From: Thermoplasmata archaeon
Lineage (GTDB): Archaea > Thermoplasmatota > Thermoplasmata > Lutacidiplasmatales > UBA184
Length of the DNA stretch: 64,000 nucleotides
Direction of reading: 5' to 3'
NCBI GenBank assembly: GCA_028864975.1
Contig: JAGWLG010000003.1
Location: forward strand, 86,150 to 150,149
Numbering within the stretch: position 1 is the first letter of the stretch; every line of letters starts with the position of its first letter. Shown piece by piece: positions 1,415 through 4,677 of this stretch. Position numbers and translations under genes: made by a program. A model generated the notes under the pieces. That model did no database searches and was not told where the DNA came from. It saw only the letters and a list, made by a program, of their open reading frames with translations.

Positions 1415-2587
1415 TCAGGTCGCCCTCTCCAAGAGATGGACGACGCTCGTGGCGCCCGTGCCTCCCAGGTTGTGGGTGAGACCGACCTGGGCCCCCGCGA
1501 CCTGCCGCTCCTTCGCCTCGCCCCGGAGCTGTCGGACGACCTCGGCCACCTGGGCGACCCCCACCGCGCCGAAGGGCTGTCCTTGGGCCTTGAGCCCGCC
1601 GGAGGAGTTGATGGCGAGCCGGGCCCCGGGAGGGCCGACGGTGCCCTCGGCGAGGGCCTTGCCGACGCCCCCCTTCGGACAGAATCCCAGGTCCTCGAGG
1701 GCGAGGAGGGCACTGATCGAGTAGGCGTCGTGGATCTCGGCGACCTGGACGTCCGCCGGGGTCCTCTTCGCGTGGCGGAACGCCACCTGGGCGGCGAGAC
1801 GGGTCGCCTCCACCGTCGTGATGTCCTTGCGGTGCTGCAGCGCGAGCGTGTCGCAGGCGACCTGGCTCGCGCAGATGCGGATGGGGGTGTCCGTGTGCTC
1901 TCTCGCCTTCTCGAGCGGGCCCAGGACCAGCGCGGAGGCCCCGTCGGAAGCGGGGGCACAGTCCATGACCCCCAGAGGTTGAGCGACGGGCGAGCCTTCC
2001 AGCACTTGGTCGAGGGAGACCTTGTTGCGGAAGTGCGCTAGGGGGTTCTTCGAGCCCATCTCGTGGGCGAGCACGGGGAAGCGCGCGAAGTCCTCTCTCC
2101 GAGTCCCGTGGTCGTGCATGTGCCGCCGGGCGATGAGCGCCCACAGCGAGGGGAGCGTCGCGCCGAAGACCGTCTCCCACTCCTGGTCCGCGCTCGCGTT
2201 CGCGATGTCCGTCTGGACATCCTCCGGGACGTCCGTCATCTTCTCGGCCCCGCCCACGACGACGTAGTCGTGCGCGCCGCTGGCGACGGCGAGGTAGGCC
2301 TGGTGCAGCGCGACCGCTCCGCTCGCTCCTCCCGCTTCGACGCGGATCGCGGGGAGATGATGGCCCGCGAGCCCCGCGTAGTCGAGGATCAGGGGGGCGA
2401 TGTGCTCCTGCTCGATGAAGCTCCCCGAGGCCATGTTCCCCAGGTAGAGCGCGCTGATGTCCTTGGAGGAAAGCTTCGCCTCCTGGAGCGCGGCGAATCC
2501 CGCCTCGATCCCGATCTCCCGGAACGAGCGGTCCCAGAGCTCGCCGAACTTCGTCTGCCCGATGCCCAGGATCGCGACCTCCCGCAT
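1415..2587 (-). CDS. Archaeal acetyl-CoA acetyltransferase (thiolase)-fold protein with substituted catalytic motifs
   Basis: MREVAILGIGQTKFGELW start; thiolase architecture throughout (DCAPASDGAS, EIHD, NSSGGLKA, HNLGGTG), but VEAGGASG, HDAY and GQP replace VEAACASG, HDCF and GHP. Confidence 0.9.
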   Translation of the reverse strand: MREVAILGIGQTKFGELWDRSFREIGIEAGFAALQEAKLSSKDISALYLGNMASGSFIEQEHIAPLILDYAGLAGHHLPAIRVEAGGASGAVALHQAYLAVASGAHDYVVVGGAEKMTDVPEDVQTDIANASADQEWETVFGATLPSLWALIARRHMHDHGTRREDFARFPVLAHEMGSKNPLAHFRNKVSLDQVLEGSPVAQPLGVMDCAPASDGASALVLGPLEKAREHTDTPIRICASQVACDTLALQHRKDITTVEATRLAAQVAFRHAKRTPADVQVAEIHDAYSISALLALEDLGFCPKGGVGKALAEGTVGPPGARLAINSSGGLKAQGQPFGAVGVAQVAEVVRQLRGEAKERQVAGAQVGLTHNLGGTGATSVVHLLERAT

Positions 2588-2589
2588 GG

Positions 2590-3657
2590 TCAGCTCCCTC
2601 CCAGGTGGATCTTCCCGCGGAACTTCGCGTACATGGCGTAGGAGAGGGGAACTCCCCCGTCGAGGAACTCCTGGACCGGGGGGCCGTGCTGCCGGTCGAA
2701 GCCCTCGATCCGGTCGGTGACCGTGAGGTCGAACGCGTCGGAGCCCGCGCCGCTGCCGTACCCGACGACCAACACACGGTCGCCGGCCTTGGCGTGGTCG
2801 AGCACGTTCGCGAGCCCGAGGAGCGCGGCACCGGAGTAGGTGTTGCCCACCCACGGGGTCACGAGACCGTACTTCATCTGCTGGTCGGAGAACCCCATGG
2901 ACTTCCCGATGCGCTGAGGGAACTTCCCGTTGGGCTGGTGGAAAACGACGTGCTGGTAGTTCTGAGGAGAGGTCTGCGCCCGCTCCATCATGCGCCGCCC
3001 GCACTCTCCCACATGGCGGAAGTAGGCCGGCTCGCCCGTGAACCTTCCTCCGTGGCTCGGGTAGCGCTGGCCCTCCCGACGCCAGAAGTCGGGGGTGTCC
3101 GTGGTGAAGCTCTCCGTCGCGTTGATCTCCGCGATCAGGTTCTCGCGGCCGATCACCAGCGCGGCCCCGCCAGCGCTCGCCGAGTACTCGAGAGCGTCAC
3201 CGGGGGCGCCCTGGGAGGTGTCCGCGCCGATCGCGACACCGTAGGTGATCATCTTGCTCGCCACCATCCCCATGCAGGTCTGGATGGCCGCCGTTCCCGC
3301 CTTGCAGGCGAACTCGAAGTCCGCCGCGGTGAGGTAGGGGGTCGCGCCGACAGCCTGGGCGACGACCGTGGCCGTGGGCTTCACGGCGTACGGGTGGCTC
3401 TCGCTCCCGACGTAGAGCGCCCCGATGTCCCGGGGATTGATCTTGCCGCGGGTGAGCGCGATGCGCAGCGCCTCGGTCGAGATGGTGATGGTGTCCTCGT
3501 CCGGGGAGGGGACGCTCTTGCGGACGACGTTCAGCCCCTTTCCCATGGCGGCCCCATCGGTCCCCCAGACCTGCCCGATCTCCTGGGGCGTGATCCGGTA
3601 GCGCGGGACGTAAGCGCCGTAGCTCACGATGCCGACCTTCTCTTCGGTCATGTCCAT
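2590..3657 (-). CDS. mvaS: Hydroxymethylglutaryl-CoA synthase (archaeal type)
   Basis: [11 protein letters not shown] (Glu), [10 protein letters not shown] (catalytic Cys), VFHQPNGKF (His), GNTYSG and [11 protein letters not shown] all match archaeal HMGCS. Start may be 3651. Confidence 0.95.
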
Positions 3658-3691: not shown

Positions 3692-4369
3692 TCAGATCTC
3701 CTCGAGACGCTTCAGGACCTCCTTCGGTCCGTACGGGGTCGTGAGGAGCGGGATGTTCTCCACCTCGGAGAGGCGGACCGCCAGAGGGTCGACGCGGCCG
3801 GGGGCGGAGTAGATGACGGCGGCGGGTTTGAGCGGGTGCGCGCGGATCGCGACCATCGGGGAGCGACCGTACTTGACGCCGCAGAAGAGGAGGGCCCGCT
3901 GGGTCGTCCAGCCGTAGACCTGGACGAACTCCTGGGCCCCCAACGACAGGATCGCCCGCGGGGCGTCGAGGAGGGTGAACCCGTGCAGGTCCCGGTGGAG
4001 GTCGACCCGGCTCGCGGGCTTCGCGTCCAGGAGCGAGGCGAGGGTCGTGAGGGGCACCGCGATGGAGAACTCCCGCATCGCGAGGATCCCCTCGGCGGGG
4101 GAGGGGAACCCCATCCGCTGGATGACGCGGCCTCCGTGCGACTTGTCGACGGCGACCAGCCCTTCCACGTAGCGTCGGATGAACCCGGCACCAGGGCTCT
4201 GACGCCGCTCGGCCTCGTAGTCCGCGATCACGGAGGGGACGGTCTCGAGCTGATGGGCGAGCTCCGTTTGCGAGATGCCGAAGTCCTCGCGCCATTTGCG
4301 CAACGTCCGCCCGGGATGGGGGGATAGGACTACCTCGCCCGCGATCTTCTCGCGGATCTCGACCGGCAC
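3692..4369 (-). CDS. XRE-family helix-turn-helix transcriptional regulator (archaeal COG1709-like, DRTGG-like C-terminus)
   Basis: [30 protein letters not shown]...SVIADYE HTH; C-terminal GRSPMVAIR...KP motif; co-oriented directly upstream of HMGCS. Confidence 0.88.
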
Positions 4370-4432: not shown

Positions 4433-4506
4433 GTTCGTGTGTCCCCTGACGGTGCGGTGGCGGGAGAAGGACCTGCAGCACCGGACCGGACGATAAGGAG
4501 GGGGAG

Positions 4507-4609
4507 TGGACTGGGCGAGATGCTCAGGAGGGAGGGGGGTCCTCTCCTCCGTTTGAACTCGCGGCCTCTACCTTGCCAAGGTAGCGATCTTCCACTGATC
4601 TACCAGCCC
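4507..4609 (-). tRNA. tRNA-Ala(GGC) with a 31-nt intron in the T-loop
   Basis: Acceptor stem GGGCTGG/CCAGTCC with G3:U70; D arm GATC/GATC; anticodon arm CTACC-TTGGCAA-GGTAG; T arm GCGAG/CTCGC; 72 nt after intron removal; CCA not encoded. Confidence 0.95.
4521..4551 (-). other. tRNA intron at position 59/60 with strict bulge-helix-bulge
   Basis: Central helix TTCA/TGAG, 3-nt bulges AAC and CAT, flanking helices GCGAG/CTCGC and GGAGG/CCTCC; cutting after the second bulge nucleotide restores T-loop TTCAAAT. Confidence 0.93.
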
Positions 4610-4642
4610 GTCTCCCCGCCGAGAGCGCGCAGACCACGGGAG

Positions 4643-4648
4643 TTATAC
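4643..4648. promoter_or_regulatory. TATA-like box possibly shared by divergent tRNA-Ala and GNAT genes
   Basis: TTATAC in GC-rich DNA, about 30-35 nt from both the tRNA 5' end (4609, minus) and the GTG at 4678 (plus). Confidence 0.4.
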
Positions 4649-4677
4649 CCTTTCGCTGGACTCCTCCCTCGACCTCC

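Follow-up and report, generated by a model that had tools for sequence, protein, structure and literature searches.

Organization of the locus

The window, by which we mean the whole 64,000-nucleotide stretch of DNA that was analysed, carries on its minus strand a tRNA-Ala(GGC) gene whose T loop is interrupted by a 31-nt insert. The features of the locus, in window coordinates, are as follows.

4507..4609, minus: tRNA-Ala(GGC) gene; pre-tRNA of 103 nt, CCA not encoded (direct reading, fold, and Rfam match on the 5' part)
4552..4609, minus: 5' exon, nucleotides 1-59; acceptor 5' strand, D arm, GGC anticodon arm, variable loop, T-stem 5' strand, and U54-A59
4521..4551, minus: intron of 31 nt between nucleotides 59 and 60 (reading, fold, and geometry check)
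4507..4520, minus: 3' exon, nucleotides 60-73; U60, T-stem CUCGC, acceptor CCAGUCC with U70, and discriminator A73
4554..4562, minus: 5' strands of the bulge-helix-bulge (BHB) motif; h GCGAG (4558-4562) and H UUCA (U54-A57, 4554-4557) (fold)
4551..4553, minus: 5' bulge AA|C; predicted 5' splice site between 4552 and 4551 (fold and geometry check)
4527..4550, minus: inner helix h', the intron hairpin GGAGG.GAGG / CCUC CCUCC with a 5-nt loop (fold)
within 4515..4526, minus: H 3' strand UGAG (4523-4526) and T-stem 3' strand (4515-4519) (fold and alignment)
4520-4522, minus: 3' bulge CA|U; predicted 3' splice site between 4521 and 4520 (fold, geometry, and alignment)
4642..4655, minus: promoter-like element, an A-rich BRE-like stretch followed by TATAA, 34-38 nt upstream of the mature 5' end (by eye)
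4612..4617, minus: 5' leader GGGGAG, pairing with the 3' trailer
4501..4506, minus: 3' trailer CUCCCC, pairing with the 5' leader

Read from 4609 to 4507, the pre-tRNA consists of GGGCUGG-UA-GAUC-AGUGGAA-GAUC-G-CUACC-UUGGCAA-GGUAG-AGGCC-GCGAG-UUCAAA, the 31-nt insert, and U-CUCGC-CCAGUCC-A. By direct reading, the pair G3:U70 (from GGGCUGG and CCAGUCC), A73, and the anticodon loop UUGGCAA (GGC) identify the tRNA as alanine-accepting. Independent DNA runs, from metagenomes of mine drainage and soil, yield contigs in which the stretch with its insert is identical.

The leader and the trailer extend the acceptor stem in the minimum-energy fold of positions 4497-4620 of the minus strand. This pairing is kept with changed letters in related genes (GGGAA/TTCCC in L008, GGGAG/CTCCC in L013), and the helix may be a processing signal. 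An A-rich stretch and a TATA-like box are seen by eye in all inspected family orthologues, positioned 33-40 nt upstream in GC-rich surroundings.

The neighbours of the locus are genes for a GNAT acetyltransferase, an HTH protein, HMG-CoA synthase, and thiolase. The latter two, an archaeal mevalonate-pathway pair, lie downstream of the tRNA (1415-3657, minus) and are adjacent and apparently overlapping in the open reading frame listing; the HTH protein gene (3692-4369) is located between this pair and the tRNA.

The window's genome is a metagenome-assembled genome (MAG) of 3.6 Mb in 124 contigs, with 67% G+C and 89.6% completeness. The organism is an uncultured archaeon of the class Thermoplasmata, and the family to which it belongs (f1) is known from soil, peat, and mine-drainage MAGs. 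An assignment of the sister families to Methanomassiliicoccales or other methanogens was rejected, as McrA was not found in five genomes.

The insert forms a strict bulge-helix-bulge motif on the T arm

The 103-nt precursor folds with a minimum energy of -45.6 kcal/mol (RNAfold; z -2.9), and 0 of 200 shuffled sequences are as stable. The minimum-energy fold is a cloverleaf whose T arm carries a strict 3-4-3 hBHBh' motif. The outer helix h is the T stem GCGAG/CUCGC, and the central helix H is UUCA/UGAG, which comprises 4 bp including one U.G pair. The bulges AA|C and CA|U have 3 nt each, the inner hairpin is GGAGG.GAGG, and an explicit geometry check agrees with the fold. The motif does not belong to the relaxed class (HBh', hBH, BHL), in which a bulge is missing or aberrant; both bulges have 3 nt and H has 4 bp.

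The geometry is that of the canonical archaeal intron at 37/38. In both cases, a 5-bp stem serves as the outer helix, the 4-bp H is formed by the first four loop nucleotides, and the cut is after the second nucleotide of each 3-nt bulge. The difference is the arm, which is the anticodon arm (27-43) for the canonical intron and the T arm (nucleotides 49-65) for the Ala(GGC) intron.

By sequence alone, a 58/59 junction is equally possible, A59 being identical to the last intron base. The junction is placed at 59/60 by the rule that cleavage follows the second nucleotide of the bulge. The mature product is identical for both junctions. The spliced T arm is the same as the T arm of intronless Ala(GGC) genes of the sister family f2, reading GCGAGTTCAAATCTCGCCC.

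ARAGORN makes no call on the unspliced gene and recognises tRNA-Ala(ggc) once the insert is removed. With the Rfam tRNA model, only a truncated alignment on the 5' part is obtained, at 30.7 bits against a threshold of 29. A first-pass annotation, made from the letters of the window, had proposed a 31-nt BHB intron (4551..4521) at position 59/60 of a tRNA-Ala(GGC), whose splicing regenerates the T loop, and had suggested that standard tRNA callers may miss or truncate the gene. The reading and the fold bear out the intron, the spliced product has the T loop UUCAAAU, and the two programs do miss or truncate the gene.

Other explanations of the insert's structure were discarded. A self-splicing group I or group II intron has a ribozyme core of hundreds of nucleotides, whereas the insert has 31 nt, and no Rfam intron family is found in the window. 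A split or permuted tRNA does not fit, as the exons are contiguous and colinear at the locus.

The Ala(GGC) intron is conserved across the family and its helices covary

The family was sampled with 24 genomes from seven genera; each of them aligns through the insert and has it at the same site. Within the family, the identity of the 5' exon is 83-96%, and its alignment with Ala genes that lack the intron in other families extends as far as A59; the 3' exon equals the 3' end of the intronless orthologues. A pattern scan with one genome per species finds the T arm with an insert in more than 119 records; among the matches listed, nearly all bear the name Thermoplasmata archaeon and come from MAG series of soil, peat, and acid soil, one is a Candidatus Lutacidiplasmatales, and two belong to Promethearchaeati (Asgard). 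The introns themselves have drifted: 90 species records hold 90 distinct Ala introns, 27-36 nt in length, with the hairpin retained.

The structure was evaluated on an alignment (A1) of 51 T arms with 59/60 inserts, comprising Ala and twelve other tRNA species from four genomes. Paired cells amount to 90.8%, compared with 65.6% in shuffled alignments. The covariation score is 0.629, compared with 0.188 in shuffles; 0 of 500 shuffles reach 0.629, and registers slid along the alignment score at most 0.163. The T stem is 100% paired, with both-side changes in 4 of 5 pairs. In the central helix H, all cells of pairs 1-3 are paired except one. In the inner helix h', 88.6% of the cells are paired and each of the 6 modelled pairs has both-side changes.

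The fourth pair of H differs. It is A.G, not a standard pair, in 86 of the 90 Ala introns, and the standard A57-U pair occurs among them only in the window's genus. The description of the motif as an exact 3-4-3 by the first-pass annotation thus holds for this gene and does not hold for the Ala introns in general. The enzyme of the family would therefore have to accept the slightly relaxed central helix of these 86 orthologues.

In eight other Thermoplasmata families, the T-loop insert is absent from Ala(GGC); in one of the eight, Ala(GGC) has a 37/38 intron instead. Because the intron is family-wide in f1 and absent from Ala(GGC) of these eight families, the simplest history is that it was probably gained once, in the stem lineage of the family. 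A survey of related genomes for the same intron had been recommended at the outset, together with the suggestion of a lineage-specific gain, and for this gene the two sets of genomes support that suggestion. As judged from the sequence comparisons, the Ala(GGC) intron is an old one, whose splice motif has been preserved by purifying selection while the letters around it drifted.

T-loop introns are frequent in the family and occur at a low level across the class

In intron mode, ARAGORN reports 110 tRNAs for the whole genome; many of these have introns that are implausible, being hundreds to thousands of bases long, and the calls were not used for counts. Two regular-expression scans for a T arm with an insert gave hundreds of chance matches and were replaced by splicing followed by ARAGORN and by a covariance model (R1) built from the T-arm alignment. 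R1 scores intron-bearing T arms at 44-65 bits and intronless T arms at 27 bits or less.

In the window's genome, R1 identifies nine 59/60 introns at 44-65 bits, in Ala GGC, Ser GGA, Asp GTC, His GTG, Asn GTT, Ser GCT, Lys TTT, Arg TCG, and Gly TCC. Low-scoring, truncated Rfam hits of this genome are further tRNA genes with 59/60 inserts. In two other genomes of the family, inspected gene by gene, ten or eleven genes each have a 59/60 intron.

R1 was next applied to an even sample of 151 genomes of the class, and matches at E <= 1e-4 were counted. At least one match is present in 114 of the 151 genomes (113 of 150 without the unpublished genome G120). The window's genome and 14 published genomes of the family have 7-16 matches each. 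Genomes of other Thermoplasmata families have 0-6; most of these families have 1-6 per genome and several have 1-3, and three families, represented by 17 genomes, have zero. Sixteen matches fetched from nine other families, a few of them cut at the 5' end, each contain a 59/60 insert by script or by eye. These loci are genes for Arg(TCT), Arg(CCG), Lys(TTT), and Leu(TAA), and several have a second intron elsewhere.

The site had first been described as unusual in this lineage. This does not hold: nine genes in this genome are interrupted there, as are 7-16 per genome in the family and 1-6 in most other families. It had also been stated that the finding would be less novel if 59/60 introns proved common in Thermoplasmatota, and with 7-16 in the family and 0-6 elsewhere they do. 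Arg(TCT), Glu(CTC), Gln(CTG), and Ser(CGA) have a 59/60 intron in sister genera and are intronless in the window's genome. Presence and absence differ between genera; therefore, introns have been lost or gained between genera.

Other tRNA genes of the genome are interrupted in further ways. The tRNA-Lys(TTT) gene at G000:C38:9218-9363 (L199) has two inserts, one in the D loop and one of 41 nt at 59/60; a T-loop insert of the same kind in Lys(TTT) is seen in other families (L180, L210, L211, L220). The genome has two different Ser(GGA) genes. A second Ser(GGA)-like gene at G000:C83:15780-15885 (L206) and a type-II tRNA gene at G000:C10:2785-2898 (L207) each have an insert on the 5' side of the anticodon loop, at about 32/33, which is a further non-canonical site. 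The 3' two-thirds of a tRNA-Arg(GCG) is conserved between G000:C32:210148-210190 (L205), L172 (G008), and L187 (G006). The L205-type sequence spans the 3' part of the D arm to the acceptor CACGGGC, and the matching 5' strand is absent just upstream, an arrangement that suggests a long D-loop insert or a split gene.

Splicing enzymes of the genome

The first-pass annotation had advised inspecting the subunit type of the splicing endonuclease EndA, and this inspection gives a single gene of the α'2 type. The EndA gene, located at G000:C53:49112-50236 on the minus strand, is one open frame with the domain order N-C-N-C (PF01974 twice and PF02778 twice). Over its full length, its product can be aligned with 1r0v, the dimeric enzyme of A. 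fulgidus, and the catalytic Tyr, His, and Lys motifs (YxH..K) are in the second repeat. A long segment between the Tyr and His motifs was not found in the alignment with 1r0v. By its sequence, the enzyme is thus of the α'2 (tandem-repeat) type. A second PF01974 gene was not found in the genome; the MAG is 89.6% complete, and a second EndA subunit could be encoded on unassembled DNA.

In an alignment of the f1, f2, and f8 enzymes, no insert specific to the family was found. An extra segment in the N repeat relative to the A. fulgidus enzyme is common to families with few introns (1-3). The ligase RtcB is encoded at C104:51240-52547 (565 bits).

The α4 and α2 enzymes require a strict 3-4-3 hBHBh' motif (PMC3239211). 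According to reviews, the α4 and α'2 lineages have introns only at 37/38 (PMC4090602; PMC5829648). The statement of the reviews is a correlation and not an experiment on this substrate. The motif of the Ala(GGC) precursor is strict, and there is therefore no biochemical conflict with an α'2 EndA, only a departure from a review-level generalisation. The 37/38-only rule looks like a sampling effect of cultured species, and the biochemical requirement looks like one on the motif, not on the position.

Alternative explanations

Could the interrupted gene be a pseudogene or relic, with GCC and GCU read by another tRNA? The candidate decoder would be either tRNA-Ala(UGC) or a second tRNA at G000:C2:71816-71888 (L204; 56.5 bits), which likewise has G3:U70 and the anticodon GGC. 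However, position 33 of this C2 gene is C in place of U, its D loop is atypical, and a search of 24 relatives, three of them from the same genus, did not find it. It therefore cannot be the family's decoder. The interrupted gene, in contrast, is present in every family genome, with near-invariant exons, intron helices that co-vary, and the promoter-like box kept, features not expected of a decaying relic. We therefore reject the idea that it is a relic, which we consider extremely improbable. The C2 gene is accessory, element-borne, or contamination. Its T loop reads TTCGATT.

Two further proposals concern the history of the 59/60 introns. Intron transposition has been proposed for Thermoproteales, and the presence of the same site and motif in nine genes of one genome would be explained by the recent copying of one mobile intron between tRNAs. 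The best pair of introns, Ser(GGA) and His, scores 8 compared with a shuffled maximum of 5. However, the mean pairwise score of the nine introns (-3.1) equals that of shuffled sequences (-3.6, sd 3.2). Moreover, the introns of Ala GGC, Asn GTT, Gly TCC, Ser GGA, Arg TCG, and Asp GTC are old and orthologous in three genera, and those of Arg(TCT), Arg(CCG), and Lys(TTT) are common to several families. The introns being old and shared across families, any copying is therefore ancient and no longer visible in the sequences, and a recent spread is very unlikely. The masking of attachment sites by introns is a hypothesis of the literature on disrupted tRNA genes and was suggested as a possibility by the first-pass annotation: a 59/60 intron would be kept, and its expansion explained, as protection against viruses and plasmids that integrate at the 3' half of tRNA genes. 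The T-arm and acceptor 3' segment is indeed split exactly by the 59/60 introns, and the intronless Ala genes L024 (G039:C49) and L032 (G040:C70), from other families, each have a duplicate of their own last 12-16 bases within about 60 nt downstream. These duplicates are att-like direct repeats and could be the scar of an integration. An integrase or mobile-element gene was not found near the locus, and none of the seven tyrosine-recombinase hits of the genome is, by eye, within 5 kb of the compared tRNA genes on the same contigs. We regard protection as an unlikely reason for the expansion. It concerns why the intron persists and is compatible with the identification of the insert as a BHB intron. 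As a separate observation, four tandem tyrosine-recombinase genes lie within 9 kb at G000:C73:5102-13984.

Comparison with known systems

A close precedent is ARMAN-2 (Fujishima et al. 2011, PMC3239211), which likewise has a T-loop intron spliced by protein via a BHB motif; the motif of its Pro(GGG) intron is a strict hBHBh', as in the Ala(GGC) gene. The enzymes differ. ARMAN-2 has a three-unit ε2 EndA of broad specificity, and a 59/60 substrate was cleaved in vitro (PMC3239211), whereas here one α'2-type gene is known from sequence. In addition, ARMAN-2 belongs to a DPANN-like lineage and not to Thermoplasmata.

Thermoproteales and other TACK archaea resemble the family described here in that numerous tRNA genes of each genome carry interruptions elsewhere than in the anticodon loop, with 59/60 as a recurrent site. 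Non-canonical introns including 59/60 in these archaea were reportedly described by Sugahara et al. in 2008 and Fujishima et al. in 2010. The TACK systems differ in having an (αβ)2 EndA with a specific loop, many relaxed motifs, and many intron positions. In this genome and family, in contrast, the introns found are mostly gathered at a single site, their motifs are strict or almost strict, and the EndA is of the α'2 type without a family-specific insert. Counts of non-canonical introns for TACK archaea are given in Table S7 of tRNAscan-SE 2.0 (PMC8450103).

The same table lists 25 non-canonical and 520 canonical introns for 144 Euryarchaeota (PMC8450103), in agreement with the background of the first-pass annotation, that most euryarchaeal introns sit at 37/38. 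Within the class, it lists 6 non-canonical introns in 3 genomes of Methanomassiliicoccales and 1 in 5 genomes of Thermoplasmatales (PMC8450103). Non-canonical introns of cultured Thermoplasmata are thus already catalogued at a low level (PMC8450103), which agrees with the 1-3 per genome that we find in several families other than f1; the table is without positions or discussion. Genomes of the family have 7-16 introns at the 59/60 site alone, which amounts to 15-35% of the genes if a genome has about 46 tRNA genes, compared with 4% in Methanomassiliicoccales. Beyond these counts (PMC8450103), we found no description of T-loop introns in the literature on Thermoplasmata, Lutacidiplasmatales, and Methanomassiliicoccales, and tRNA introns are not a subject of the paper in which Lutacidiplasmatales was named, where they go unmentioned (PMC9287336).

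Another parallel comes from Asgard archaea, for which T-arm introns have been described (bioRxiv 10.64898/2026.10.13.758758). In our pattern scan, an Ala gene with the same T arm has a 59/60 insert forming a BHB in the two Promethearchaeati records L049 and L055. The Asgard introns differ in belonging to another phylum and in showing about 2.2 interruptions per gene at many positions. Given the phylogenetic distance, the Asgard Ala insert is probably an independent gain.

Discussion

We conclude that the locus is, with high probability, a conserved and functional tRNA-Ala(GGC) gene whose BHB intron at 59/60 probably goes back to a single gain in the stem lineage, has been kept by selection, and is part of a family-wide trait. 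In the pathway that we propose, the gene would be transcribed from the BRE/TATA-like promoter about 35 nt upstream. In the precursor, folding and covariation show the T stem as the outer helix, the 4-bp central helix as the pairing of U54-A57 with UGAG at the end of the intron, and the intron's own hairpin as the inner helix. The splice sites would be located in the 3-nt bulges, at AA|C and CA|U; the bulges follow from folding and covariation, and the exact cuts are predicted from the cleavage rule. An EndA dimer of the α'2 type is expected to cut both bulges, and RtcB is expected to join the exons and circularise the intron; genes for both enzymes are present. The predicted product is a tRNA with the normal T loop UUCAAAU.

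Why this site is used so often may be explained by the invariant T-loop motif UUCRAA, which could provide a ready-made half of a BHB in every tRNA. We give an even chance to the wider proposal that up to about a third of the tRNA genes in these genomes have a 59/60 intron, that all of these introns are processed by an ordinary α'2-type EndA, that UUCRAA makes the T loop a hot spot, and that introns are gained and lost there repeatedly.

The 59/60 intron type is already known, and the single Ala(GGC) gene is by itself routine for its family; the type is under-described for this lineage. Ala(GGC) reads GCC, which should be a heavily used codon at 67% G+C. Simple callers drop the gene, and the tRNA complements of these MAGs are therefore undercounted. 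The gene clearly exemplifies the T-loop introns with which the whole family is loaded, in an organism where the only EndA found is of the 'strict' α'2 type. The lineage, in which a single site is used in many genes and introns have been gained and lost between genera, is a clean natural system for the study of how and why tRNA introns arise. If the wider proposal is true, the position of archaeal introns would be limited by whether the local RNA can mimic the anticodon arm, and not by the subunit type of EndA.
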